32,000 nucleotides of DNA from Sulfolobus acidocaldarius DSM 639 (GTDB taxonomy: Archaea > Thermoproteota > Thermoprotei_A > Sulfolobales > Sulfolobaceae). Positions 1 through 14,399 of this stretch are shown one piece after another. The translations under genes and the position numbers were made by a program. The first letter of the stretch is position 1. Each line of letters starts with the position of its first letter. The stretch lies in NCBI RefSeq assembly GCF_000012285.1, contig NC_007181.1, positions 1,230,001 through 1,262,000 of the forward strand. Reading direction: 5' to 3'. The notes under the pieces are model-generated. The model was not told where the DNA came from and ran no database searches. It worked only from the letters and a program-made list of their open reading frames with translations.

Positions 1-1354
1 CTATCATTTGATTATTTTCCTTTAGTCTACCTTCTCTAACACCCTTAATTAATACGGGATCTGAGAAATCAGAGAAGAAGAAAAAAGGATTCGTCTCATA
101 ATATTCCTCGCCCATAAATATTAGCGGTATATACGGTGAGAGTATATATAGTGTGGCTGCCATAAGGTATGTCGTTTTATCGGTTAATATGGAAAGTCTT
201 TCCCCATTTCCTCTATTTCCTACTTGATCGTGATTTTGTATGAAGACTACAAATTTACGTGGTGGAAGATCACCTACAGGAGCACCATGAGTTCTTCCTC
301 TGTATCTAGAATACTTTCCATCATAAACAAAAACATCTTTAAAAGTTTTCTCTATATCTTCTATCCTTCCAAAATCCTGGTAATAATAATCTTTTTCTTT
401 TGTTATGAATGCATGAACTGCGTGGTGGAAATCGTCAACCCATTGAGCATCTATTTTATATCCACAATCATCTTTTACTATTTTTGGATCATTTAAATCA
501 CTTTCAGCAATAACAAATTTTCCTAATTGATGGGCTTTTTCAGCTATCTCTTGGAGGATATGCTTAGGCGAATTATCAAAAATTGCATGAACTGCATCCA
601 GTCTCAGACCATCGATTTTAAAGGTCTTAAACCAATACTCGACATTTTCTAAAATGAATTTTCTAACTTGATCACATCCCCTATCATCAAAATTAAATGT
701 TAATCCCCATGGAGTTTTATATCTGTCTGAAAAATAAGGACCTAATCCTAAAAGGTAATTTCCCTCAGGACCTATATGATTATATACAACATCCAAAATT
801 ACGGCTATTCCCCTTTTATGTGCCTCGTTTACTAGCTTAGCCAATTCCCATGGTCCGCCATAAGTATTTTGAACTGCGTATAGAAAAACACCATCGTATC
901 CCCAATCTCTATTCCCTGGAAATTGTGCCACAGGCATCAGTTCAATTCCTGTGATTCCTAGATCCTTGAGGTAATCTAACTTTTCTATTACTCCTTTGAA
1001 ATTTCCTTCTTGGGAAAAAGTACCAACGTGGAGTTCATATATTATTAGATCTTCTATTTTTACTTTTCCAAGGTCAAGAATCTGATAATCTGTTCTTATA
1101 AGTTGTGATTTGTCATGAACTCCTAAAGGTTGATATCGTGATGCGGGATCAGGTATCTCTCTCTTATCTTCTATAATATAAGAATAGGTTAAATTTTCCT
1201 CGATATCGTCTATTTCTACTTCGAAAAATCCCTCATCGTTTTTTTCCATTGGAATAAGTTTTTTGCTTAACTTCAGCTTAACACTATTAACATAAGGTGC
1301 CCATAACTTAAAGATACCTTTATTTTTTTCAATATTTCCACCGAACGAAAACAT
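1..1354 (-). CDS. treZ: malto-oligosyltrehalose trehalohydrolase (GH13), 5' part; C-terminus lies beyond the window start
   Basis: Absent from the ORF track because it runs off the window. The minus-strand frame is open from ATG (cat 1352-1354) to position 1. Translation [27 protein letters not shown]... carries GH13 motifs [18 protein letters not shown] and FIQNHD, and matches my recollection of Sulfolobus TreZ. Confidence 0.85.
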
Positions 1355-1559
1355 GCTGTTTAAATAGAAATTATGTCTTAATATATTTAAATGTTTTCGA
1401 GTGAAAATACTTATCAGAACTGATTAAATTCTTATTATTGTTGAGTTATTAGAGTATTTAGTATATAAGTTAAAACCATCATTTGTTCTATGAGTGGGAC
1501 TTATCTAATAGAAATACAAAATAATAAAATCATATGGTAATATAAGAATAAGGTAAGTC

Positions 1560-1708
1560 TATGGATGATATTATGTTTACTTTATCAAGAAGAGTCAAGG
1601 TGGTAAGACGAAGGAGACTTACGTTGGTGCTTTAGTTGACCTAGTAAAGACTTACCTGAAATTGTAAGATAGAAGTGGGGTATTAGGGTGTATCCCCCTA
1701 ACCTTTCA
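1560..1708 (+). pseudogene. decayed Int(N)-like fragment of an SSV-type integrase, lying outside the left att copy
   Basis: 1569-1664 reads YYVYFIKKSQGGKTKETYVGALVDLVKTYLKL, then TAA (1665-1667), then a 1-nt deletion relative to the right-hand Int(N). It is ~70% nucleotide-similar by eye to 10263-10393 and resembles the SSV1 integrase N-terminus (RYYVYK...YVGPLADVVESYLKMK) as I recall it. Confidence 0.7.
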
Positions 1709-2518
1709 AAGGTAGCCGGGCAGGGACTCGAACCCTGGTCCCAGGGGCCAAAGCCCTGGTTAGGGGAGGAATCCCCTAAAACCCCTCTTTCAAATGATGA
1801 AGAGAGTAAGGGATTTGCCCTAAACTCCCTTACTTCTAGGGAGGGCAAAAATGGTCTCACGGAAAAGGAATTAATTGAATTTTATGAATATTGTTTGAAA
1901 ATGGCCAGTGAGGAAACTTGCAGGCAGTATATCAATTATCTGAAGAAGCCCCCTAGTAATGCTAAGAACTCTATCCTAGCCTGGAAGAAGTTCTACAAGT
2001 GGAAAGGGGATCTTGAGGCATGGAAAAAGCTGAAAACGAAAAAGTCTGGTGTTGATCTTAAGGTTCCAGGAGCTGACGAGATAGGGAGGTGGTTGGAGGC
2101 TGTTAGAGGTATTGAGGTAGAGCTAGTCTTCAAGCTCCTCCTTGAGAGCGGTATAAGGCTTAGGGAGGCTGTAAAGGTTCTCAATGAGTATGACGAGAAG
2201 AACAACGTGAAAGAGGACGGCTTCTACGTATACACGCTCAACTGGACTAGAGGGCCAAAGAAAGTGTTCTATGTCTTTCACATTTCGTCTATAGCTAAGA
2301 CTGATATAACGTACAACTACGCGAAGAATTTATTGCATGAGAAAGGGATAGCGCCGAAATATGTACGCAAATTCGTGACTACTAAACTCGCGGAGCTCGG
2401 AGTTAGTGCCGAGGTAATCGATTTCATGCAGGGCAGGACGCCTTCTTCGATTCTTGGCAAGCATTATCTCAACTTATTAGCCCTCGCCAAGAAAGACTAC
2501 AGACGCTACGCCGAGTGA
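1688..2518 (+). CDS. SSV-type tyrosine integrase, C-terminal catalytic part (Int(C))
   Basis: The ORF-track protein starts inside the att repeat (VAGQGLEPWSQGPKPW is translated tRNA sequence). It contains ESGIRLREAV, YVFHIS, KYVRKFVTTKLAELGV, DFMQGR and LGKHY, collinear with the SSV1 integrase catalytic region (GVRLSE ... RKFVASKMAEL ... FIQGR ... QHY). Confidence 0.85.
   Translation: MYPPNLSKVAGQGLEPWSQGPKPWLGEESPKTPLSNDEESKGFALNSLTSREGKNGLTEKELIEFYEYCLKMASEETCRQYINYLKKPPSNAKNSILAWKKFYKWKGDLEAWKKLKTKKSGVDLKVPGADEIGRWLEAVRGIEVELVFKLLLESGIRLREAVKVLNEYDEKNNVKEDGFYVYTLNWTRGPKKVFYVFHISSIAKTDITYNYAKNLLHEKGIAPKYVRKFVTTKLAELGVSAEVIDFMQGRTPSSILGKHYLNLLALAKKDYRRYAE
1709..1759. repeat. attL: 51-bp direct repeat, a partial 3' copy of tRNA-Gln
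   Basis: aaggtagccgggcagggactcgaaccctggtcccaggggccaaagccctgg is identical to 10394-10444. Flanking bases differ on both sides. Confidence 0.95.
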
Positions 2519-2578
2519 CTCAAAACGAATTTTTCTCAGTAAACTGGGAAGTTAATTCAAAGCTAAGTTGTTTTTAAA

Positions 2579-3118
2579 GTGTTGAATTTTGAGATGAAGT
2601 TATTCAAGGTTGCGTTAAAGGACCTCAATTATAGCAAGCTTGAGCAAACGCAAGTCTTCGGCAACGTCTTCGAGTTCGTCTTTCTGGAGAGAGAAAAAGA
2701 GGTTGACTTCTTTGTAAGGACATCTGCCCAGGAGGAAATTTTGAGGAAGTACCTCATGATAAAGGAGGACAATCTAAGTTTCAACCAAGGTTTCGTAGGG
2801 GTTCTGAGCCTGAAGAAAGAGAGCGACTTCTACGAGAACATTGAGTACAGCAATCTATTGAACATCATCACGTACTGGCAGAAGGATGAACAGATCAGGT
2901 TCTGGGTTGTGTTAGAGCCCAGGCTTAATGACCTCTTTCTCAGGAAGGCTGAGGTACTAAAGAAGGAGGCCCAACGGGCCATGTTTGGCAAGAGGAAGAA
3001 AGAAGTACAAGCGTCACTGCTCGGGAGCCTTGCGAAGAAGAACATCTACTTACTACATATCATGTTTTATACTAAGGATAAACAGAGGCTCAAGCTACTT
3101 TTCGAGTACGCCAAGTAG
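2579..3118 (+). CDS. hypothetical protein (element cargo)
   Basis: 179-aa ORF with GTG/TTG-type start, coding-like composition and no recognisable motif. Confidence 0.5.
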   Translation: MLNFEMKLFKVALKDLNYSKLEQTQVFGNVFEFVFLEREKEVDFFVRTSAQEEILRKYLMIKEDNLSFNQGFVGVLSLKKESDFYENIEYSNLLNIITYWQKDEQIRFWVVLEPRLNDLFLRKAEVLKKEAQRAMFGKRKKEVQASLLGSLAKKNIYLLHIMFYTKDKQRLKLLFEYAK

Positions 3119-3265
3119 TACATACATACTCGCTCTAGAAAGCTAGCCTATATTTAACTTTAGATGGACTTGCCTGCACCTATTGCGTAATCAAGACTGG
3201 TAAGTGTGTAACAAATGCAGAAAATGTTATTAATTGCTGCCAGTAATATTAAAGAATGAGATAAA

Positions 3266-3892
3266 ATGGAAAGTAGAAGATTTTTCCTATCCATGATATC
3301 TTATTTAGTTGGGCTACTGTTACTTTACCTGTCACTCTTCCTGTCTACCCAAATACCCTATCATGGAAATCTCGTGTTAGAGTTACCAATAATAATACCA
3401 ATGGTTTTTTCTATAATTGCTATAGGCGTATCCGTTCATTTATTTTTAGGTAGTAGTTATCCGTATTTCTTTAGAACAGGGGTAATGAGTCTAGTAGCAG
3501 GGATAACACTTTTTGTTTTCGGCTTTATATCATACTCATTCAATGCAGGATCCATAGTCTGGGCGGGTTCGCTAGTTCTTGGTGTCATTTTTATTGCTGG
3601 CGCTATCTTCCGCTTGCTTGTCCAAGGTGGTTTAAGCGCTTATAGAAGGTTTAGGAGAGGTGAGACTTCAACTGTAGAAGAAACTAGTATACCTTCAACG
3701 AGATTAAGAAACAGGAAGATCTTTCTCATAACCTTTGGGGCTATTCTCTTAATCTTTAGTATTCAAGGGGTCATATCTAATATTACAGGGTCTAGGCCTT
3801 TAGCATCCTTTGGCGATATAATCTCTTTCGCTTTTATCGCAGGAGGCATATACTTCGTTGTAGAGTATGTAAGGATTAGAGACCAGTCCTAA
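3266..3892 (+). CDS. integral membrane protein, about 6 predicted TM segments
   Basis: 208-aa ORF with repeated hydrophobic stretches (LVGLLLLYLSLFL, IIIPMVFSIIAIGVSVHLFL, LVAGITLFVFGFI, LVLGVIFIAGAIF, IFLITFGAILLIF, FAFIAGGIYFVV). Confidence 0.65.
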   Translation: MESRRFFLSMISYLVGLLLLYLSLFLSTQIPYHGNLVLELPIIIPMVFSIIAIGVSVHLFLGSSYPYFFRTGVMSLVAGITLFVFGFISYSFNAGSIVWAGSLVLGVIFIAGAIFRLLVQGGLSAYRRFRRGETSTVEETSIPSTRLRNRKIFLITFGAILLIFSIQGVISNITGSRPLASFGDIISFAFIAGGIYFVVEYVRIRDQS

Positions 3893-4037
3893 ATCTCTCT
3901 AGGTTTTACATTAAAAGAGTTCTTAGCCACCAAACCTGTTGAATAATCCCTTCACTTATTTATTACGTTAAGGGAGAAGTCTTACTCTTTTCTGAATAGA
4001 GATAAAAGTCTGCACAGTCTTTTTATCGTGCAGAACA

Positions 4038-4835
4038 TGTGTTGACGACAATTTCATCTATCTCCATGAAATTCAATTTTATTCTTGCTTATACTTACAG
4101 ATTTCGAGTAAATTGCGTTTCAGACCAGGAAGAAGATTTTCAACCTCCTCATCACCGTGCTCCTGGTCGAGTTCCAGGGGAAGTGGAAATCCACGCCTGC
4201 TAGCCTATGTAAAGCTTCTGGACACCGGTTCTACTATCGTCCTCTTTCCTAAAGTTTCAATCCCGTGTTTCGCGTTGAACCAGTTGAAATCCTTGTAGAC
4301 TGACGCCTTGTCGTGTAAAAAGGTGAACCCTATCCCTCCAGTCCTCCAGTTTAATACCGTTTAGTATTACGTAAACGTGGAGACCACTCCTTAGGCTAGT
4401 TAACATGAAGAACACGACCGGCCCAGTCTCGTAGTGCCTAAATACCCACAGGTAGCAATACTCGCCCCTAACCCTCAACACCTTGGTCTCGTCAACGAGG
4501 AAAGGGCCCCCATCCTCAACGTCTAGCTTAAGCTCGTAATCAACGCTAGCTAGCTTATGAAGGTAGAAGAGCAAGGTTATGTGAGGTAATAAAGTCCTCC
4601 AACTTGATAACCCTAGCAAGTAGGAGGTCAAGGCTAGTGCAATCTCATCCAAGGTGTGGAACCTAGGCTTAACACTTATATACCTTAAAAGGGCAGAGAT
4701 TACTTGGGTGAGGACGAGGGAATCGAACCTGTTCGTCATCTCACCTCATGAAATAAACTCGTCCTGACCCTAAAAGCACTTTTCCAGATATAGAAAATCA
4801 ATTTATATCAAAACAACCAAATTGTTGTCCACACA
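4038..4835 (-). mobile_element. decayed IS element (~798 bp) with an IS6/IS240-like DDE transposase
   Basis: Terminal inverted repeats tgtgttgacgacaattt (4038-4054) and aaattgttgtccacaca (4819-4835) match 15/17 as reverse complements. They enclose a minus-strand transposase-like reading frame broken into three frames. Confidence 0.55.
4079..4739 (-). pseudogene. DDE transposase pseudogene (IS6-like), frameshifted and stop-interrupted
   Basis: ORF 4257-4739 contains FLVDETKVLRVRGEYCYLWVF (the DET..G...YLW motif). Downstream, in other frames, it continues DKASVYKDFNWFNAKHGIETLGKRTIVEPVSRSFT* and then ASRRGFPLPLE..., the expected C-terminal part. Confidence 0.5.
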
Positions 4836-6089
4836 CAGACCGTGTCCGGGACTGCTTATCTATATGCAAACTCGCAACTTCTCAATTCTCAATCTTTCGC
4901 TTATACTTTCTATCCAAGGGGAGGTAGCTATACTAACCTGCTCTCAGGGTCTGTAGTAGTACCATAGAGCGTAACATACCTCGTCTCAGGTCAATATACC
5001 ATATCTACGTATGCTGAAACGAGCTCTTCACATTCGAGACAGGGAAACTATACAATCGTCGTGACAGACCATTACCCCTCGTCACCATACATAACTACTC
5101 AAGGCAACGTGTACAACTGGTATGAATATGATGTATATCCAGCAGTTATCGTAATCGTGAACAATGGCACTAATCCAGTGACGTTATTTGCGAATAAACT
5201 GTACACGTCAAGGCAAATCACAACTACGATATCGTTCATGGACATCTGGAGCTCAAAGTCGTATCAAAACGCGACTAGTATTATCACGTATGATACATTG
5301 AATGTAGGAAACTACTCAGTAAGTAGAATATGGCACGCTGGGAATATAGTTCTTACAGCTCAGCAATATCTGCAACAATCAGGGAATACGTACAACTACT
5401 ACTTAAGTTTCAACTTGATAAAGGATGTAACGGAGCCACCGACATGGATATATCAAAAAATGCCGTACAACCCTTACGCTACGCAGGGCTGGTACTATCT
5501 TGAGCAGAACGCGACCTTGGCAAATGCTTTGATGCGGTATGTCAATCAAACGATGAACAGCACTGACGTACAGTACAAGTACTTCGAGTACTTCACACTA
5601 GCGAGCGAGTTCGCCAGCTATACTTTCAATACGACGTATAGCAAGTTTGCAAATACAATCGAGCTCGAGAGCTTCTACGACCCGTGGGTCTTAATGAACG
5701 TGCAAATACTCGACATAAGTAAACTACCAAACGCGATACAGTACTTCCCAGGCCAGCTTATGTTCTTCAATGTGTCTAGGATCCCAGCGGTATATAACGC
5801 GACTAACCTCGTGAACATCTCTGGAAACTACGAGATCTATTGGGTGGACCTGTACAATTCGTGGAACGGCCCGCCCTTCGGGAACGAGTACCAGTGGATT
5901 AACTTGGCGACGGGACAGAAGTATAACTTATACTTGTTTAACGAGACTGGGATACCGTACCCTGGCGAGATGCTTACTTTCTATAACGCTGACTTTATGC
6001 CGAGCATATACTATGCGATATTTATTTACCCTGAAGGGACAGTAGTAAAAATTGAAGCGGTTTGGAACGGGACAGCTTGGATAAGTTAG
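4836..6089 (+). pseudogene. truncated and frameshifted gene for an Asn/Tyr/Thr-rich, heavily N-glycosylatable extracellular-type protein
   Basis: ORF 5061-6089 (GTG start, no signal peptide) has 12 N-x-S/T sequons. The same kind of sequence continues upstream in-frame to 4968, and in another frame across 4836-4964 (QTVSGTAYLYANSQLLNSQSFAYTFYPRGGSYTNLLSGSVVVP*). It has no start codon and abuts the IS end. Confidence 0.55.
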
Positions 6090-6248
6090 TATATTTTTTC
6101 TTATTAATTCCCCAGATCCCAGCTTTTTAAAACATATATACCGATGAGAAAACTTTACAAATATTATTACAATCATGATATTAAAGATAATAAAGTAAAA
6201 AACGCAAGGTTTTCAAGCTCCCTATAACGACAAAGAAACGGGAATGAA

Positions 6249-6309
6249 GGCGGGTGATGAGAGGTCCACAGGCGACCGATGAGCGAGAGTCGGAGTGTTG
6301 AGCCCGCCC
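6249..6309 (+). ncRNA. candidate small structured RNA (C/D-box-like k-turn layout), GC-rich island
   Basis: ggcggg (6249-6254) pairs with cccgcc (6303-6308). Just inside are GUGAUGA (6254-6260) and UUGA (6298-6301), plus an internal CGAUGA (6277-6282). The ~60 nt are clearly GC-richer than the AT-rich surroundings. Guide spacings are 12 and 15 nt and the D' box is poor, so confidence is low. Confidence 0.3.
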
Positions 6310-6348
6310 GATATTATAGTTATCTTCTACAGTTAAAACTTTTACGAA

Positions 6349-6489
6349 TTATTTCCCACAAGGAGGTCTATGGTCGGGATTGAGCTCATAATAAGCCTCA
6401 ATAAGCATTTTCCTAAACTCCTCTAGGTCTTCGTCAGTCTCTAACTCTAGGTACCCATAACCTTTCTTATCCTTCTCAACTATTCTCAT
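6349..6489 (-). CDS. unannotated small ORF (46 aa), acidic, hypothetical
   Basis: ATG at 6489-6487 reads MRIVEKDKKGYGYLELETDEDLEEFRKMLIEAYYELNPDHRPPCGK*. A TTTTTATT box lies ~22-29 nt upstream on the minus strand (plus 6511-6520), consistent with a leaderless transcript. It is below the ORF-track size cutoff. Confidence 0.3.
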   Translation of the reverse strand: MRIVEKDKKGYGYLELETDEDLEEFRKMLIEAYYELNPDHRPPCGK

Positions 6490-6604
6490 ATGTATAATGT
6501 TGGTGAAATAGAATAAAAAGGGTTTTTTGAGTAACGAGATGATTATTTTGAATAAGTTTCAAAATTCCTAATGCGCAATTTTCAATTTTTTGTATTAGTG
6601 GAAA

Positions 6605-6713
6605 TAAGTAGGTTTAAGTAGGAACGATTCTGGGAAAAAATAGGACTTTTTGGGAACATTTGTGGGAAAAATTCCCAAAAATTCCCCACTTATTGGGGAA
6701 ATGGTGGGAACAT
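6605..6713. repeat. iteron-like array: 2x TAAGTAGG, seven TGGGAA/TTCCCA-type motifs, two palindromes
   Basis: TAAGTAGG occurs at 6605-6612 and 6615-6622. TGGGAA occurs at 6631, 6651, 6663 and 6705. There is a perfect palindrome TGGGAAAAATTCCCA (6663-6677) and a palindrome TTCCCCA-cttat-TGGGGAA (6682-6700). TGGGAACAT is repeated at 6651-6659 and 6705-6713. Confidence 0.8.
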
Positions 6714-6720
6714 AAAAGAT

Positions 6721-8265
6721 CTAGAAAAGAAGTAGAAAGATACTTACGGGAATATATACTACATTATTCTCTTTATCCAGCTTGTCCTTTGTCAGCACTA
6801 TAACTGTGTCGTTGATACTGTATTTCCCAGTCTTAGGATTACTACTATACTTTGACTCTATGTAGAACTTATACTTCGAATTGTTCTTAGTTATACACAG
6901 AATAAAATCAATCTCGCCCTGATCATCCTTTCTATACATGAGTACTTTGTCATATTCCACATGGGTGACATGTTCAAACAGATATTGAGATTGGAGCAAG
7001 TGGGAGGCTACTACGCTTTCTACCAACAACCCTTTAAATGTGTTGTCTTTAAGCATTTTTCGTGACTCTTCAAAGGGGTCATCAGAGTTATGGAAATAAC
7101 TTCTAATCGAGTGGTATAGGAAGGGGTCAAGCACATAGTTTTTAACCATGTCCTCATAGTTTGGCTTACACTCCTCACTTTCTCTATATCCAAAAAAGAA
7201 GGAGTATGTAGTTATTAGGTAGTTAAAATAGTCCTTCCAGTTAATCTTCCTCTTGGGTTTCCCGCTCTCGTCCTCACCTATGACCTCTAAATTAATGGGA
7301 TTCATTAGGTTAGAAACTGTCATTGGACCAGTTAAATATTCTAGTAACCTCTCTAAGTTAGTAGGGTCTAGCCCAGCGACTTTAGAGTCCTTTATTAATA
7401 AATCTGCAATATTGTTGTAAAAGTTCTTCGATATTCTTCCCTCCTTAAGGTATTCGTCAATAGCCTTAGGATAACCTCCGTGCAATAAATAGTTTTCAAA
7501 AGATTCTCGAAGAAACACAAAGTAAGAGTCATAGAATTTTCTTAAAATATCGTCAATGGATCCACTGCGTAGAGAATTAAGGATTCCGAATCTATAGCCA
7601 GGTCTTCTAAACTTTTTGTTAGCAATAAATTCATTAATATCTTTACGTATTGCCTTAACTACTTCTGAGAAACGTAAAGGTCTCATTACTAGGTTACCGC
7701 CTAAGTTTATCATCTTAGCCATCTCACCTTGTCTATCGCTGAGCTTACTTGCTGCTTCAGCTAAGTCCATCGAATGACTCCCAGTTGCAATAATTCTCAC
7801 CTTATAGTTTTTTATTAAACCCTCGTCATAGGCGTTCTTCAACGCTTGAGCCCAACCTCTATACATTGAAACTTCATCTAGAAAAACGTATTTCTCTTCA
7901 TTATTACTCTCTGCTATTGCCTCCAATAAGTTGATTAGGCTAATGTTGTCAACTTTAAACTGCTCGTAATCTAGTGGAATGTAAAAGATATTTGATGGAT
8001 TTATTTGTCTCTCTTTAATGAGGTGACGTATTATAAGTTTAATGAGAGTCGTCTTACCAACTCTGCGGGGTCCTCTTACAGTTACAATGCCATAAGAGCC
8101 TGAGACAAAATTATTAGTTAGATGAAAAAATAGCCTTGGTCGTTCTTTTAGTTCTGAGTTATCGAACTCCCCTAGTTCATTATCTACCTTATCCCAGTCC
8201 TTATTTTCCCACCATCTATTAAAGTTCTTTAAGAGCTCACGTAGATTGTTGGTACTTAGTTTCAT
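6721..8265 (-). CDS. AAA-type ATPase (COG1373 / AAA_14 + DUF4143-like) with a C-terminal PD-(D/E)xK nuclease-like motif
   Basis: 514 aa. Walker A is GPRRVGKTT (nt 8050-8073) and Walker B is YVFLDEV. The C-terminus GEIDFILCITKNNSKYKFYIESK gives a D...ExK arrangement (about D453, E470, K472). The start overlaps the upstream AbrB gene by 29 nt. Confidence 0.8.
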   Translation of the reverse strand: MKLSTNNLRELLKNFNRWWENKDWDKVDNELGEFDNSELKERPRLFFHLTNNFVSGSYGIVTVRGPRRVGKTTLIKLIIRHLIKERQINPSNIFYIPLDYEQFKVDNISLINLLEAIAESNNEEKYVFLDEVSMYRGWAQALKNAYDEGLIKNYKVRIIATGSHSMDLAEAASKLSDRQGEMAKMINLGGNLVMRPLRFSEVVKAIRKDINEFIANKKFRRPGYRFGILNSLRSGSIDDILRKFYDSYFVFLRESFENYLLHGGYPKAIDEYLKEGRISKNFYNNIADLLIKDSKVAGLDPTNLERLLEYLTGPMTVSNLMNPINLEVIGEDESGKPKRKINWKDYFNYLITTYSFFFGYRESEECKPNYEDMVKNYVLDPFLYHSIRSYFHNSDDPFEESRKMLKDNTFKGLLVESVVASHLLQSQYLFEHVTHVEYDKVLMYRKDDQGEIDFILCITKNNSKYKFYIESKYSSNPKTGKYSINDTVIVLTKDKLDKENNVVYIPVSIFLLLF

Positions 8266-8593
8266 CTTTACTTAACCTCCTCAAATATCTTGCAAAGTCA
8301 AATTCAAGCCTACCCAGCTCCTTTGCAAGTCGCTCGTATTTTTCCTCCAACTCTTTAACCCTCTCTTCTAATTCGCTGTTTTGAGGTAGGCCGTCCTTAG
8401 TGATTACAATCTTTTTGTCACTCGTCAAGATTAGATAAATTTCCTCACCAGGCTTGAGGTCAAGTTCTCTAATGAACGAGCTAGGAATTTTTATCCTCCC
8501 TCTGACGTCTATAGTCATTTTCTTAGTCTCTTTAATTTCCACAATAATGTTATTTTGCGTAAAGGCTAATATTATTTTCCCACTTCTTCCCAC
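8237..8593 (-). CDS. AbrB/SpoVT-family DNA-binding protein with a C-terminal coiled coil (antitoxin-like)
   Basis: MTIDVRGRIKIPSSFIRELDLKPGEEIYLILTSDKKIVITKDG is a typical swapped-hairpin AbrB/MazE/SpoVT domain. The C-terminus ELEERVKELEEKYERLAKELGRLE is coiled-coil-like. The likely true start is the internal ATG at 8518, with ATTATT ~25-30 nt upstream; the ORF-track start 8593 adds 25 non-conserved residues. Confidence 0.75.
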   Translation of the reverse strand: MGRSGKIILAFTQNNIIVEIKETKKMTIDVRGRIKIPSSFIRELDLKPGEEIYLILTSDKKIVITKDGLPQNSELEERVKELEEKYERLAKELGRLEFDFARYLRRLSKDETKYQQST

Positions 8594-8642
8594 TATTGTA
8601 AACTAGTTAGATAGTTCACTCAATTTTTACCTCACTAATGAG

Positions 8643-8704
8643 TTGACCTCCTCCAACTTTAAAGGACGAGACTTACTTATTTTGAGTTAACTCCCCAGTT
8701 TACT
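8643..8704. repeat. left repeat module flanking ORF 8806-9951
   Basis: ttgacctcctcc-N6-aaaggacgagactt (8643-8674) has an inverted copy at 9983-10015. ttgagttaactccccagtttact (8682-8704) has a direct copy at 10038-10060 (20/23) and contains the 10-bp palindrome GAGTTAACTC. taaaggacgaga is repeated again at 8731-8742. Confidence 0.8.
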
Positions 8705-8805
8705 GAGAAAAAATTCAACTATGGTCATTCTAAAGGACGAGAGCCTTACCTTTAGGTCAGTCATCTCAGTATATTTTATTAATTCAGTTTTGTAATTATA
8801 TATAT

Positions 8806-9951
8806 ATGTCTAATGAGGAATGCTCTGAAAAAGTCGATGTACTTATTTGTGAAGAGCTGAATGTGCGTCTCAAAAAATTGAAAGAACTTCTTAAAGAGGA
8901 CGTTATCTACTCTAACACTTTGAAGTCACTTGAAGAAATCAATTATGAAAATGAAGAAGCCTCTAAAAAGGCAGCAGAGAGAATAATTGAATTTCTTGAT
9001 CACCGGCACGATGAGTATGTAAGCAAGAATATTAAAAAAGATGATCTCAAAGACGAATTAACCTTTCTTAAAACTAATCTATTAGTAGATCTTTCGAATA
9101 AAAATCTATGTGATGATAATAATGTTGAACAATACGGAAACAAAATTAAGGATGCTTATAAAAGTCTGAGAAATATAGAGGGAGTTGACTCCGTTATTGC
9201 ATCGGAAATATTGCACATACTTTTCCCAAACTTCTTCTTAATCTGGGATATCGAATTAGCTAAGTATATTATAGGTAAGCCAGCAGAAGAGCTTAATGAA
9301 GACGATTACCTCTGTTTCCTTAAGATTAGGTGTAAATGTATAAATCAAAATGAAATTACTCAGGCGTATTCAGAACATACTACATCAGAGAGCAAAAGGG
9401 AGGAAATAACTTTAATGAAACCAATAGACAAGCCTAATACGGGAAAATCTGCAGAAAAAAACAATCTTGTGACATCATCACCTGTGGAAGAAGAGAGAAG
9501 ATCAACAAAATATAACTATGAGGAAATACATCAGGATTTAGACAATCACATCTCTCTTAGTGACATAATAATCATGGCGCTTAGTAGTGAACCAAATAGG
9601 CTTATCATAGGCATAGACTCTCTCATTGAGCTGGTCCGCAAAGTATATAATGAGTTAAAGGAAAGGGGATTCCAAGTAGAGGACCTAAAGTTCGTGCTCC
9701 TTGATGATCAATTATTGCGTAAGAGGGTGCGTGATAGTCTTGAAGACCTCAGTAAAAAACAATATATTTACATAGAAGGGATACGGAAAGAGCAGTTTAA
9801 ATTAACAAATAAAGGATTTGAGATGGCCTTAAAGCTGTTCAAAAAGTTTGGGATAGATTTCGAAAACTTTAAAATGCGTATACAGAGAAGGCGTGCAAAG
9901 AGCCAAGATGAAAAAGAAAATGAAAGGCGTTTAAATGAGAATATTCAGTAA
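8806..9951 (+). CDS. hypothetical protein: N-terminal region with a helix-hairpin-helix-like motif, C-terminal winged-helix-like region
   Basis: 381 aa. Residues ~123-148, NIEGVDSVIASEILHILFPNFFLIWD, resemble the HhH plus downstream Asp layout of HhH-type DNA glycosylase-like domains (weak, by eye). The C-terminus LSDIIIMALSSEPNRLIIGIDSLIELV...YIYIEGIRKEQFKLTNKG looks like a wHTH. Confidence 0.6.
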   Translation: MSNEECSEKVDVLICEELNVRLKKLKELLKEDVIYSNTLKSLEEINYENEEASKKAAERIIEFLDHRHDEYVSKNIKKDDLKDELTFLKTNLLVDLSNKNLCDDNNVEQYGNKIKDAYKSLRNIEGVDSVIASEILHILFPNFFLIWDIELAKYIIGKPAEELNEDDYLCFLKIRCKCINQNEITQAYSEHTTSESKREEITLMKPIDKPNTGKSAEKNNLVTSSPVEEERRSTKYNYEEIHQDLDNHISLSDIIIMALSSEPNRLIIGIDSLIELVRKVYNELKERGFQVEDLKFVLLDDQLLRKRVRDSLEDLSKKQYIYIEGIRKEQFKLTNKGFEMALKLFKKFGIDFENFKMRIQRRRAKSQDEKENERRLNENIQ

Positions 9952-9982
9952 TGTCTCTCAGTGAAGGTGATTAAAACGAGGA

Positions 9983-10060
9983 AAGTCTCGCCCTTTATGG
10001 CGGGGAGGAGGTCAAAGAGTTTTTGGGAATGAAATGTTTGAATTAACTCCTCAGTTAACT
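9983..10060. repeat. right repeat module flanking ORF 8806-9951
   Basis: The reverse complement of 9983-10015 is ttgacctcctcc-N7-aaagggcgagactt, matching 12/12 and 13/14 against 8643-8674. 10038-10060, ttgaattaactcctcagttaact, is a direct copy of 8682-8704. Confidence 0.8.
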
Positions 10061-10202
10061 TAATAAAAATTGTAATTATAGTAATATTATTTTATTAGTA
10101 TTACTGATGAGGAATTTTTGCCCTGTTCTTTCAACTTTAGATTTGATTAAGGCAATTACCATCGATATTTAAGCTTTAATTATTTGAAGAGGGCAGAGTT
10201 AA

Positions 10203-10400
10203 TATACGGGTTATAGGACTTTCGTTGCCGGGCAGTATAAGATTCGTCAGAGAGGGAATAAGTATTATGTTTACTCCATAGAGAAGGGTCAAGACGGTAA
10301 GGTAAAGGAACATTATATTGATCCTTTAGCTGACGTGATTGAAACATATGTTAAATTGAAAGATAGTAATGTGGGTATCAGGAGTACCCCAATAAGGTAG
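10203..10400 (+). pseudogene. Int(N): N-terminal part of the partitioned SSV-type integrase, decayed
   Basis: Reads YTGYRTFVAGQYKIRQRGNKYYVYSIEKGQDGKVKEHYIDPLADVIETYVKLKDSNVGIRSTPIR* and is collinear with the SSV1 integrase N-terminus. The frame opens directly after TAA 10200-10202 with no start codon. It is 1 nt out of register with the frame that Int(C) uses through the att sequence. Confidence 0.75.
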
Positions 10401-10444
10401 CCGGGCAGGGACTCGAACCCTGGTCCCAGGGGCCAAAGCCCTGG
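10394..10444. repeat. attR: 51-bp direct repeat inside the intact tRNA-Gln
   Basis: Identical to 1709-1759. It covers tRNA positions ~26 to the 3' end plus 4 nt downstream. Confidence 0.95.
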
Positions 10445-10470
10445 ATCCTTGACCGCTAGACGACCCGGCT
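10398..10470 (-). tRNA. tRNA-Gln (anticodon UUG)
   Basis: The minus strand reads AGCCGGGTCGTCTAGCGGTCAAGGATCCAGGGCTTTGGCCCCTGGGACCAGGGTTCGAGTCCCTGCCCGGCTA. Acceptor stem is AGCCGGG/CCCGGCT, anticodon arm is CAGGG-CTTTGGC-CCCTG, T arm is CAGGG-TTCGAGT-CCCTG. Length 73 nt, no encoded CCA. Confidence 0.9.
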
Positions 10471-10566
10471 AAGTATACTTTGTCATATTTTAACTAAAAA
10501 GCTTTCTTTCCATTTAGTATCATGTAGTCAATACAGTATTAATTTTAAGAGTATAATCACCCTCTT

Positions 10567-10923
10567 TTACATATAGGTCTGTGGCTTTATTTCAACTTTT
10601 CCTTTCAGTACTGATTCTCTTATCAGGAAGTTATTTTCACTTAGTTTAATAACCAGAATGGAAATTAAGAGCTTAATCTTCCTCTTTCTATATTCGTTTA
10701 GCTCCTTAATTGTTTGTTTTAGTTGGTCTACTAATTCAGGAATGGAAAATCTAAGTAACTCGTCTTCCTCTTTTAAATTTCTAATTTCTTTCTCTAATTC
10801 ATAAGCTAATTTTAATAGATCTTCCTTTTGTGTATCTTTCAATAGTTTCAATAATTTGTCTGCAGCTTCAACAATTTTCTCTTCATTCATATCATGTATA
10901 ATGTCAAGTAAAGGTGCAAACAC
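10567..10923 (-). CDS. hypothetical coiled-coil protein
   Basis: 118-aa ORF (GTG start; alternative ATG at MNEEKIVE), Glu/Lys/Leu-rich, lying between two tRNA genes. No recognisable motif. Confidence 0.45.
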   Translation of the reverse strand: MFAPLLDIIHDMNEEKIVEAADKLLKLLKDTQKEDLLKLAYELEKEIRNLKEEDELLRFSIPELVDQLKQTIKELNEYRKRKIKLLISILVIKLSENNFLIRESVLKGKVEIKPQTYM

Positions 10924-10953
10924 AGTTTACATTTCATTAAACTAAATTAAAAG

Positions 10954-11050
<97 letters not shown>

Positions 11051-11077
11051 ATGATAATATATTCGCCAGGTTAAGAA

Positions 11078-11713
11078 TTAAAGATTTTCCTTATAAAAGG
11101 AAAATGTTGTATCAAGCCCGCTATCTTTTATGAATTTTGCTAAAAGATTGTATATCTGCCTTGCCCTGTTCAAAACCAAAAAGTCATTTGTGCATATTAC
11201 ATTATTACTCAAAATTAATTCTAAGTCCGTCTTTCTAACAGTTTTAGCATATATACCCCTATATCTAAGTTTACCTGCGAGCTCTCCGCTCCTACTTATC
11301 TGTGAATCTAAAATGATTTCGAATTTTATCTTATTCTGATCTAAATATTCTGAGAGAAGGACTAACATATCAAAGATTTCTTCTGAATTATTTTTTCTCT
11401 TGCCTAGTCCTAAGTCTCTATAAAAACCATCGTCACAAAGAAAGATTTCATCACCATAAATTAAAGAGAGTAATGTTAGTGCTAAATTGTAACCGTCTAG
11501 TATTACATAGGTTACACTTTTCACGCTTTTACTTCTTATATGTTGAATCTCTTCGTCACTATGGATACATCTATATAATAACAATCTTGATTTTTTATCT
11601 AAATTGTATCTTGAACTAATTAGATCTAAAGCCGGTTTTCTGTTATATCCTCTGTTTAAAAGGTACTTATAATCTTCATACGCCATTAGTAATTGCTGAC
11701 CTAATTGTATCAA
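11078..11713 (-). CDS. conserved archaeal hypothetical protein (DUF434-like N-terminus)
   Basis: 211-aa ORF immediately downstream of, and overlapping, alaS. The N-terminus [39 protein letters not shown] resembles the DUF434 signature as I recall it. The likely start is the internal ATG at 11686. Confidence 0.6.
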
Positions 11714-14399
11714 TTATCTTTTCCTCTTCAACAGTTATTGAAACACTTCCATATGTTCCTTTTCCTCCCCCTCTTCCACCAATTTTCCTTAATTCATCCA
11801 CGATTTTATCGACCTTTATGTCCTTTGATGTCGCAATTTCAACGTTCTTTGTATCTTTGCCTCTGATACTAATTACAATATTTTGATTGTTAGATGTGAT
11901 CTTCCTCATTACTTCTTTTATAAGCTGTTCATCTATAAAGTCTCTCAATATATATATAGTAATTCCATTGACGCTTATTCTCTCTGCAATCTCCTGTATT
12001 CTATCCAATACAATTTTACGATATTTGTCCAACAAATTCTGTAAGTTCTCATATTCTTCTAAATGTTTTTTGAGTCTTACATTAATCTGGGATACAGGCG
12101 AATTTAGCAACTTTGAGATTTCATTTAATTTCTCGTCCTGTTGTCTTGCATAATTGGATACCATATCACCAGCTACATATTCTAGTCTTATTACACCGTC
12201 TTGAAGTTTTTCGACGTTCACTATTTTAACTCCTCCAATTTCTCCGGTGTTTATGAGATGGGTTCCTCCGCATCCCTCTATATCCCAATTTTCTATTTCT
12301 ATTAGTCTTATCTCAGACCCTTCAGGTATTCCTCCAGCATATATAGAAACTCCATATTTCATTTCAGCTTCAGTTCTCTCAATATATAGTGGTCTAACTT
12401 TTCTGCGATCATTAATTATATAGTTAGCAAAATCTTCTATTTTCCTTATCTCTTCTTCTGTAGGCAACTTATAGTGAGTTACGTCAAGTCTTCCTTTATA
12501 TTCTGTTTTCTCAGCCCCTGCTTGCCATGCATGTTCTCCTAATACTCTTCTTGTGGCTGATAAAATCACGTGCGTAACCGTGTGGTGTTTCATAATTCTA
12601 TATCTTCTTTGCCAGTCTATTTCACCATATACTTGCTCTCCTTGAATGAAGGGAGAATCTTTGTCAAGTATATGCACAATTACTCCCTTATACTTTTGGG
12701 TATCAATTACTTTGGCCTGCTTATTACCCTCAATTGATCTTATAATTCCCGTATCACCTATTTGACCTCCACCCTCAGGATAGAATGTCGTTTGATCTAG
12801 GACTAGGAAATTTTTATAATTTAATAACACTTTTGCATTGAATGTCCTCAGATACTGATCTTTATAGTAGAGAGGAACAGTTGGCTCTATTTTTTTATTG
12901 TTTATTTCATCAATAACTTCTTTGGGAATTTTATCCTTCCTATTTTCTCTCACTAGAGCATTTTGATGTTTCTTTGCTACAATGGAGTAGAAGTTATGAG
13001 GGATTTCAACGTTAATATTTATATTCCTTTTTCTCGCTTCATCTAATATTAGATCTGGGGAAATACCATTAGAATCGTATATGTTAATTAGTTCATCTAA
13101 GTCAACTTTGCTCTTTTTAGATAACGTTGAGAGTATGGAAGGAATTTTGCTTATTGTATCATTATACTTCTCCTCCTCATTTATTACTGCATCAACTATA
13201 TAGTCTTTATTCTTTAACATCTGTGGAAAATCTTCTTTCCAATAATCAATCTGATCCTTTATTAGTTCATGTAGCTTGACATCACTACCTAATAATCTAA
13301 GGACTCTGAGAGCTCTTCTAATTAATAACCTCCCTAGATATCCCTCGCCTGAGTTAGAGGGTACAAGTCCATCTGCTAACATGAGAGCAATTGTTTTTGT
13401 GTGATCAAGTACCTGAAATACTCTGGCAGCTCTTGTAAGTTCCTCATTTACATACTTCAAATCAAGACCTAATTGTTTTGCTAAATGCTCCCTATGGGCA
13501 GTTATAGTCTCTTTTATGTCAGGATCTATTCTACCTGCGTATATAGCAGCAGCTTTAAGTAACTCATTATTTACTTCACCAACGCCAATCTTTTTGTAGA
13601 ACGAGCTCACTAAATTACCATAAATCGCATGGAAGGCTGTTGGGGTTCTCTGTGTAAACCATGCAATTCTTTCAACACCATATCCTGTATCTACAATCTT
13701 AAGTTTTAAGGGTACGTAATCTTGTCCCCTAATTTCGTATTGCATAAATACCAATGTAGCTAATTCTAAGCCTCCTACTGTTACTTCGAAACACGGTCCT
13801 GCATTACCTCCACCCTCCCACCATGATTCTTTAAAGTTTAACTGATCTTCAGGGATCCCTAGTTCTTCTGTAAAGAACTCCTTAGCAAATGCTACTGTTT
13901 CGTCTTTCCAATAAATTTGTTTATCAGGATAATTGAATGCATGATGAGCAGCCATTTCAAATGTGGTCAAATGCCTTCCAAATGTTATTCCTACGTTATC
14001 CACATCTTCTAGTCTTATACATGGCTGAGAAACTACCAGTGGATTTGCAGGCGGTTTAGCTAATCCGCTCGTTACAAATGGTTGAAAGTCAACTATACTA
14101 GCTATAGTAAGATAAAGATCATCTCTCCACTTGGCAACTACAGGTTTAGGTGGAACTATGGTGTGTCCTCTCTTTTCAAAGAATCTTAGAAATTTTTCTC
14201 TTGATTCTCTCACTGTTAATGGGGGAGATTTAATCTTGATATCAAAGAAGTAATAGTCAGTACAAGGAACATCTGAACAATTTTCCTTTGACTTATCTAA
14301 AGTCCAAAATGGGGTAGAACAGGATCTACAAATTTTTCTTTCATATCCTCTTGACAGAAAAAAGTTTAACCTGTACTCGTTCTCGTTTGCTTTGACCAT
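11676..14399 (-). CDS. alaS: alanyl-tRNA synthetase
   Basis: 907 aa. Archaeal AlaRS features include the N-terminal Zn-like CRSC...[11 protein letters not shown], the GPCFEV class II core, the editing-domain HHTVTH...CGGTH motifs, and a C-terminal DHHA1-like region with GGRGGGKG. Confidence 0.95.

Follow-up and report, generated by a model that had tools for sequence, protein, structure and literature searches.

The described systems closest to the locus reported here are the Sulfolobus spindle-shaped virus 1 (SSV1) provirus, the pXQ1-type elements and the elements SA1-SA4. In these systems, as here, the attachment site of the element (attP) lies within the integrase gene (int), a repeat of the tRNA 3' part marks the junctions, the N-terminal gene part Int(N) lies at the intact tRNA gene, the C-terminal part Int(C) lies at the distal end, and decay followed capture. 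The SSV-type mechanism has been described (PMC3119797; PMC8371274). The intN part that overlaps the tRNA gene usually persists after captured elements degenerate, and one tRNA gene can receive serial integrations (PMC3119797; PMC3718332; PMC8371274). For Sulfolobus acidocaldarius DSM 639, four integrated elements, SA1-SA4, were named by Chen et al. 2005, according to PMC5554439. All 50 strains of that study carry SA1 and SA3, and all but one carry SA4 (PMC5554439).

Here we describe an 8.7-kb region of the DSM 639 genome that occupies positions 1709-10444 of a 32,000-nucleotide (nt) stretch of contig NC_007181.1 (1,230,001 to 1,262,000), referred to as the window. With a probability of roughly 85%, it is a mobile element that was inserted into a tRNA-Gln gene by a partitioned SSV-type integrase, was captured and has decayed. 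Compared with the SSV1 provirus, the pXQ1-type elements and SA1-SA4, it shows no difference in kind; its own features are that its Int(N) is damaged, that its cargo is non-viral and that it adjoins an older Int(N) footprint. The integration mechanism and the class of captured element are already known, and no new mechanism is found here. The present analysis adds the unoccupied site of a sister species, the order of the insertion relative to the older Int(N), two lesions in the Int(N) of the element, the recognition of two cargo open reading frames (ORFs) as fragments of plasmid genes, and a relic of an IS6-family insertion sequence (IS).

The element, its integrase and the empty site

A perfect 51-bp direct repeat (51 of 51 nt identical) brackets 8,685 bp of DNA. 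Its left copy, attL, lies at 1709-1759 and its right copy, attR, at 10394-10444. This pair is the only family of long direct repeats in the window, and its 23-nt core occurs exactly twice there, compared with 0 expected from 100 shuffles. The integration target, an intact tRNA-Gln(TTG) gene, lies at 10396-10470 on the minus strand and has the right copy as its 3' part; both ARAGORN and Rfam (RF00005, 54.5 bits) called this gene. ARAGORN also called a tRNA-Gln at 1711-1788. This call is the att copy only, and its Rfam score of 25.8 bits is below the 29-bit threshold. Besides this pseudo-tRNA, Rfam found nothing within the element. Int(C) lies downstream of the left repeat, at the distal junction, and Int(N) runs into the right repeat, where it overlaps the intact tRNA gene. 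A second tRNA gene lies outside the element at 10958-11050 on the minus strand. It has an intron-like insert, scores 58 bits with Rfam, was given no definite anticodon by ARAGORN and is conserved in the sister species described below.

Int(C) is an intact ORF of 276 amino acids (aa) on the plus strand (1688..2518). It matched PF16795 (E = 7.5e-42), the integrase family phrog_5127 (1.3e-95) and the catalytic domain of the SSV1 integrase (3UXU at 2e-33; 3UXU, 3VCF and 4DKS all at about 1e-33). The homology to integrases begins at the att-encoded residues, KVAGQGLEPWSQGPKPW. In the 3UXU alignment, ESGIRL, KYVRKF and GKHY of Int(C) align with ESGVRL, KYFRKF and TQHY of SSV1 Int, and the catalytic Arg...Lys-x-x-Arg...His-Tyr positions are conserved. 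We take the aligned motif residues to have the roles of the SSV1 Int catalytic residues R211, R281 and Y314. The size and the catalytic region agree with an earlier note made from the sequence alone. That note had placed the start of Int(C) inside the repeat, whereas the start is a GTG at 1688, 21 nt upstream of it.

The closest viral relatives of Int(C) are the integrases of SSV11 (MK054237, Norris Geyser Basin), SSV5 and SSV6, at about 58-63% aa identity (59.5% for SSV11 int and 57.8% for SSV5 and SSV6 by our comparison). No homologue of Int(C) above 64% identity was found. In SSV11, int stays in a single frame across a stretch of 42 nt that differs from the att of the element at only one position. 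The residues encoded there are KVAGQGFEPWSQGPKPY, in the same frame as KVAGQGLEPWSQGPKPW of Int(C). Since SSV11 int reads through this near-identical stretch, the 51-bp repeat is a bona fide attP/attB core of the integrase family. Compared with SSV11, SSV5 and SSV6, the element has no other fusellovirus gene, and its DNA similarity to them is confined to the 5' end of int and the region upstream. Neither VP1/VP3 nor the DnaA-like ATPase of a Fuselloviridae provirus was detected, and only int matched a PHROG with a function.

The insertion site was compared with that of G039, a sister species of the same genus with a genome of 2.06 Mb, whose flanks are ~94% identical in nucleotide sequence to those of the window. 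Window positions 1-1759 and 10262-12160 align to one continuous stretch of G039 with a single att in an intact tRNA-Gln(TTG) gene. The gene order there is treZ, an orthologue of the older Int(N) relic, here called Int(N)_A, and the intact tRNA-Gln gene. Colinearity breaks exactly at the att boundaries. The rest of the 8.7 kb was not found in G039, except for unrelated IS copies, Int(N) paralogues and a short dispersed repeat. Thus, the 8.7-kb element was genuinely inserted in a site-specific way, beside the footprint of an earlier integration. The features of an SSV-type integration are therefore all observed: the catalytic domain with its catalytic positions, attP within int, repeats identical to the tRNA gene, and an unoccupied site in a relative.

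To survey S. acidocaldarius itself, we used the NCBI assemblies returned for the neighbouring 118-aa gene, which include the Yellowstone strains of 2012. All 23 S. acidocaldarius contigs read had the same gene neighbourhood around the element, and no empty-site allele was seen among them. At the eight places returned, from eight assemblies, the element sits at the same site, and the sequence matches the window at 100% identity. An empty site had been expected in related strains; it exists in the sister species but not within the S. acidocaldarius assemblies. The earlier note had expected such a site to have the treZ upstream region next to an intact tRNA-Gln gene, and the G039 site agrees with this prediction; the older Int(N) relic lies between treZ and the tRNA gene there. 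Length variation among strains within Int(C) and within a 342-aa ORF was considered as hypervariability and rejected: it comes from Nextera adapter plus N at scaffold gaps of draft assemblies, at about 2070-2230, 4900-5170 and 5800-5960. Both draft and "complete" NCBI assemblies of S. acidocaldarius carry adapter and a single N at such scaffold joins, always in GC-richer stretches of the element, and the joins lead to spurious truncated integrase and ORF calls in public annotations, such as a 258-aa "integrase".

Int(N) relics and loss of mobility

The element's own N-terminal integrase part, Int(N)_B, lies at 10206..10400 on the plus strand. It has ACG in place of a start codon, ends at a TAG inside attR, and its 52-aa product matched PF07935. 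Upstream of it is the int leader and promoter region (10039..10205, plus strand), which has 76-86% nucleotide identity to SSV genomes and also to the genome's other Int(N) relics. Int(N)_B and its upstream region together (10039-10363) resemble fusellovirus DNA and these other relics.

Int(N)_A lies outside the 8.7-kb element, at 1510..1708 on the plus strand. It is a decayed relic with about 70% nucleotide identity to Int(N)_B and a weak match to PF07935. The DNA left of attL is therefore not plain host sequence; it is the remnant of an older integration. Since the G039 orthologue directly abuts tRNA-Gln, Int(N)_A is older than the 8.7-kb insertion, which moved it 8,685 bp away from the tRNA gene. 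In DSM 639, Int(N)_A has three in-frame stops and a 1-nt deletion. The G039 copy is in frame through att over its last ~50 codons, and its lesions differ from those of the DSM 639 copy; therefore, the two decayed independently since the species split. Int(N)_A and Int(C) were also considered as parts of one former gene. This was rejected, since in G039 the tRNA gene has Int(N)_A alone at its side.

When the genome was searched with tblastn, 13 further Int(N) pieces were found, 12 overlapping a tRNA 3' end and one at a distance of 18 nt, together with only 3 Int(C) genes. Altogether there are 14 Int(N) footprints compared with 3 Int(C), located at 395, 440, 442, 499, 542, 594, 648, 694, 799, 1083, 1189 and 1300 kb and at 1510-1708 and 10206-10400 of the window. 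Thirteen of the 14 overlap or abut a tRNA 3' end and one lies at 18 nt. Several still begin with a start codon and continue in frame across the att that derives from the tRNA gene. In G039, the Int(N) relic at tRNA-Gln(CTG) shares 89.7% identity with the Int(N)_A of DSM 639 (window 1537-1759), while the two relics of DSM 639 itself are ~73% alike. Such a pattern points to gene conversion, or to replacement of one relic by another, between the two tRNA-Gln loci.

Strong SSV-type Int(C) genes number only three in the genome, each with an Int(N) and a tRNA-derived repeat. Besides the 8.7-kb element, there is an integrated element at 395,182-427,658 in tRNA-Ser(CGA), with a 37-bp repeat, and one of 5.7 kb at 1,300,374-1,306,072 in tRNA-Arg(GCG), with a 44-bp repeat. 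Because the genome holds only these three strong Int(C) genes, the 8.7-kb tRNA-Gln element is almost certainly one of the named SA1-SA4.

To model excision, Int(N)_B and att were joined to the DNA downstream of attL. No intact int was regenerated, and the longest open frame was 277 aa. Int(N)_B enters att 1 nt off the frame of Int(C) and then stops at the TAG. In addition, positions 10206-10208 read ACG, where two paralogous relics, at 499 kb and 799 kb, have ATG. As a positive control, the same model applied to the 5.7-kb tRNA-Arg(GCG) element regenerated a 350-aa int, and that element may still be competent for excision. The earlier note had predicted a rejoined int gene without a start codon and 1 nt out of frame, as was found. 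A programmed -1 frameshift was considered, as the frame in which Int(N) enters att contains a stop and is the same in both copies. It was rejected because no slippery heptamer is present and because att is read through in frame in two relatives, the G039 orthologue of Int(N)_A and the relic beside tRNA-Gln(CTG). Since in-frame relatives exist and there is no slippery site, the lesions of Int(N)_A and Int(N)_B are independent.

The SSV-type Int(C) genes of the chromosome are all partitioned (3/3), so the integrated state leaves the chromosome without a gene for the full-length enzyme. No replication or virion genes were recognisable in the cargo by Pfam, PHROG, phage and plasmid searches. The two lesions of Int(N)_B, the lack of replication and virion genes and the identical copies in all strains read support an element that is immobile and trapped, as the earlier note had thought probable. 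It is very improbable, in our estimate, that Int(C) is kept intact by selection or that tRNA-linked Int(N) relics are retained through interference with incoming integrases. All three Int(C) genes of the genome have open frames. If either were true, captured SSV-type integrase parts would have been domesticated by the host and would not merely be decaying.

Cargo and composition

The cargo was compared with plasmids and viruses of the Sulfolobales, a search proposed in the earlier note. Fragments of conjugative-plasmid genes were found, and phage blastn matched the int 5' region only. Two ORFs have homologues in pARN3, pARN4, pAH1, pYN01 and pTC of the pARN/pNOB8 family, a TraG-like protein and a protein of ~667 aa, at 36-49% aa identity. 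The relic of the TraG/VirD4-like conjugation ATPase (2579..3118, plus strand) retains the N-terminal ~175 aa of about 1025. By tblastn it is 36-45% identical to the proteins of pARN3/4, pAH1, pTC and pYN01, and it maps to pARN4 9617-10102, within the coding sequence 9533-12610. The second ORF (4836..6089, plus strand) is the C-terminal ~424 aa of a secreted, signal-peptide protein of ~667 aa found in Sulfolobales conjugative plasmids. It has one internal stop and is cut at the boundary of an IS. tblastn with the full-length ~667-aa homologues covered 4830-6086 only, corresponding to residues ~243-666, at 44-49% identity to pARN3/4, pAH1 and pYN01. Compared with the pARN/pNOB8 family, the element has truncated fragments only, and the integrases of these plasmids had no match to Int(C) in the plasmid search. 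No complete transfer region with full-length TraG-like and TrbE-like ATPases is present; all that is left is about 175 aa of the TraG protein and, of the ~667-aa protein, about 424 aa.

A further 144-bp segment (6354..6497, plus strand) is 80% identical to pNOB8, next to the TnpB gene of that plasmid. The stretches adjoining this segment recur at 415-418 kb in the 32-kb element integrated at tRNA-Ser(CGA). More broadly, window 6160-6497 and 8679-9325 are 72-82% identical to parts of that element at 413-418 kb, and by this comparison the integrated elements of the genome evidently share modules. pXZ1 and pSSVi are likewise small non-viral elements with an SSV-type integrase; their integrases are 42% and 34% identical to Int(C), respectively. 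The plasmid search gave no DNA similarity to pRN-family plasmids, and no cargo gene matched a replication-protein family.

The IS that borders the 667-aa relic is an ISC774-like element of the IS6 family on the minus strand (4038..4835). Its 17-nt terminal inverted repeats are present (15/17), and its transposase is truncated: NF033588 matched at 1e-38 over 124 of 195 model positions, with a score below the family cut-off, so an intact DDE transposase is lacking. In G039 there are several near-full ISC774-like copies, whose matches begin at window 4038-4044 and end at 4834-4839. At least 6 copies there are near full length (for example, G039:C1:1643730-1644478), and S. acidocaldarius has only the dead copy in the element.

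The remaining genes are of other kinds. An intact ATPase gene with AAA_14 and DUF4143 domains (6721..8265, minus strand) matched PF13173 (1e-25), PF13635 (8e-14) and the candidate defence family PDC-S01 of PADLOC (4e-26). A small DNA-binding protein of the AbrB/MazE fold (8237..8593, minus strand; PF04014, 9.5e-7; TIGR01439, 8e-7) is encoded next to it and overlaps the start of the ATPase gene. ORF208 (3266..3892, plus strand) is an orphan of lower GC. It had no match in Pfam, PHROG, NCBIfam or PADLOC, and none in plasmids or in 46 other Sulfolobaceae genomes. ORF381 (8806..9951, plus strand) has the locus tag Saci_1449 in the supplement of PMC5554439. The supplementary table there lists a deletion in Saci_1449 (1,146 nt) at 1,239,461, gene position 656, which fits the ORF at 8806-9951 exactly (PMC5554439). 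ORF381 is frameshifted in one strain. Its N-terminal half has a 47% paralogue within the 32-kb element at 413 kb. Scans of viral contigs for relatives of ORF179 and ORF381 were empty. Between ORF381 and the int leader, window 9973-10014 contains a 42-nt GC-rich, hairpin-like motif with a few diverged copies in DSM 639; in G039 it occurs more than 20 times, at 83-95% identity. The motif may represent a small dispersed repeat, or else the end of a miniature inverted-repeat transposable element (MITE).

Base composition varies along the element. The segments 1760-3118 (43.6% GC) and 4038-6089 (44.0% GC) are in the top 2.0% and the top 1.3%, respectively, of genome windows of equal length, compared with 35.4% GC for 6090-10393 and 36.7% for the genome. 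This is the contrast that the earlier note had seen by eye between 1.7-3.1 and 4.1-6.1 kb on one side and 6.1-10.2 kb and the flanks on the other. GC at third codon positions (GC3) falls into two classes. The high class, 0.53-0.66, with 44% GC, consists of Int(C), at 0.53, together with the relics of plasmid genes and of the IS, at 0.55-0.66 (the TraG relic has 0.66). The low class, 0.33-0.41, consists of ORF208, the ATPase, AbrB, ORF381 and Int(N)_B. The flanking host genes have 0.24-0.27. Because composition and homology both agree, a mosaic of at least two sources with decayed cargo is supported, in line with the note's reading.

Alternative histories and significance

Several observations weigh against an inserted, captured and decayed element. 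The link to SA1-SA4 was made by way of PMC5554439 only and is hence indirect. The empty site of G039 could in principle reflect a precise excision and not the ancestral state. Finally, both att copies are still perfect and the Int(C) ORF is intact, so that excision driven by a helper would be possible in principle. In such a scenario, a superinfecting SSV11-like fusellovirus with tRNA-Gln specificity would supply integrase in trans and the element would excise across att. The 51/51 identity of the att copies, the single-base difference in 42 between them and SSV11 attP, and the Yellowstone origin of SSV11 fit this, and excision by a complete external integrase has been discussed (PMC8371274). 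We nevertheless consider it improbable that the element can still be mobilised. Every strain read has the element in identical form at the same site, the excised circle would carry no recognisable replication or packaging genes, and the chromosome has no full-length SSV-type int, as its three Int(C) genes are all partitioned. The idea that the 51-bp repeat arose by chance or is a generic duplicate of a tRNA fragment, with no tie to integration, has practically no chance of being right. A third genomic copy of a 32-nt core might seem to favour it. However, this copy is the paralogous tRNA-Gln(CTG) gene, Int(C) and Int(N) flank the repeat exactly, and the sister species lacks precisely the intervening DNA; the identity of the third copy and the empty site together refute a generic duplication. 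The earlier note would have given up the element if all relatives carried the 8.7 kb and the repeat were generic, and neither is the case.

A different origin is conceivable for the two integrase parts. Two elements could have integrated in tandem, and an internal deletion could then have removed the middle att, the first Int(N) and the second Int(C), so that Int(C) and Int(N)_B would not be cognate. This is the route by recombination between elements that Redder et al. 2009 proposed, as cited in PMC3119797 and PMC8371274. The two sharp classes of GC3 (0.53-0.66 and 0.33-0.41) would agree with such a chimera, but the GC segments alternate high-low-high-low and do not form two blocks. Within about 190 nt, Int(N)_B has two disabling lesions, compared with none over the 759 nt of Int(C). 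The two parts have different best matches as well: SSV11, SSV5 and SSV6 for Int(C), and SSVK1, SSV1 and SSV17 for Int(N)_B. As Int(N) has only about 60 codons, this ranking by identity is weak. Swapping of N and C modules at att occurs in known integrases, for example in pXZ1 compared with SSV4. However, the difference in GC between the N and C parts here, +0.06, is within the range of intact int genes (-0.07 to +0.06), and a search for a third att or a further Int fragment inside the element found none. We regard the chimera as unlikely. If correct, it would change the history of the element and not its nature.

The repeats, the geometry of Int(C) and Int(N), the read-through of attP in SSV11 int and the empty site of the sister species all fit a partitioned SSV-type integrase, the model that the earlier note put forward. 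For an element inserted, captured and decayed in this way, we infer the following order of events and the loss of mobility. A circular element with an SSV-type ("suicidal", partitioning) integrase would have recombined with the 3' part of tRNA-Gln(TTG) by way of its internal attP. The insertion probably took place in the S. acidocaldarius lineage, after its split from the sister species, and the target site would already have held the Int(N) relic of an earlier integration. The int gene would have been split, with Int(C) carried to the far (treZ) end, Int(N) placed against the regenerated tRNA gene and the 51-bp att left at both junctions. In the decay since then, the ATG of Int(N) and its frame into att were lost. 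The genes from conjugative plasmids are truncated, the IS6-family element within is dead, and no replication or virion module is left.

The locus is an example of archaeal "gene capture" in which the empty site, the older footprint, the insertion and the decay can be seen together in a model organism, whose genome is the best studied of Sulfolobus. It shows that foreign DNA has entered and become fixed in a genome known for its stability. The fixed foreign material includes fragments of conjugative plasmids, an IS of a family that is otherwise inactive in the species, and a candidate defence ATPase.

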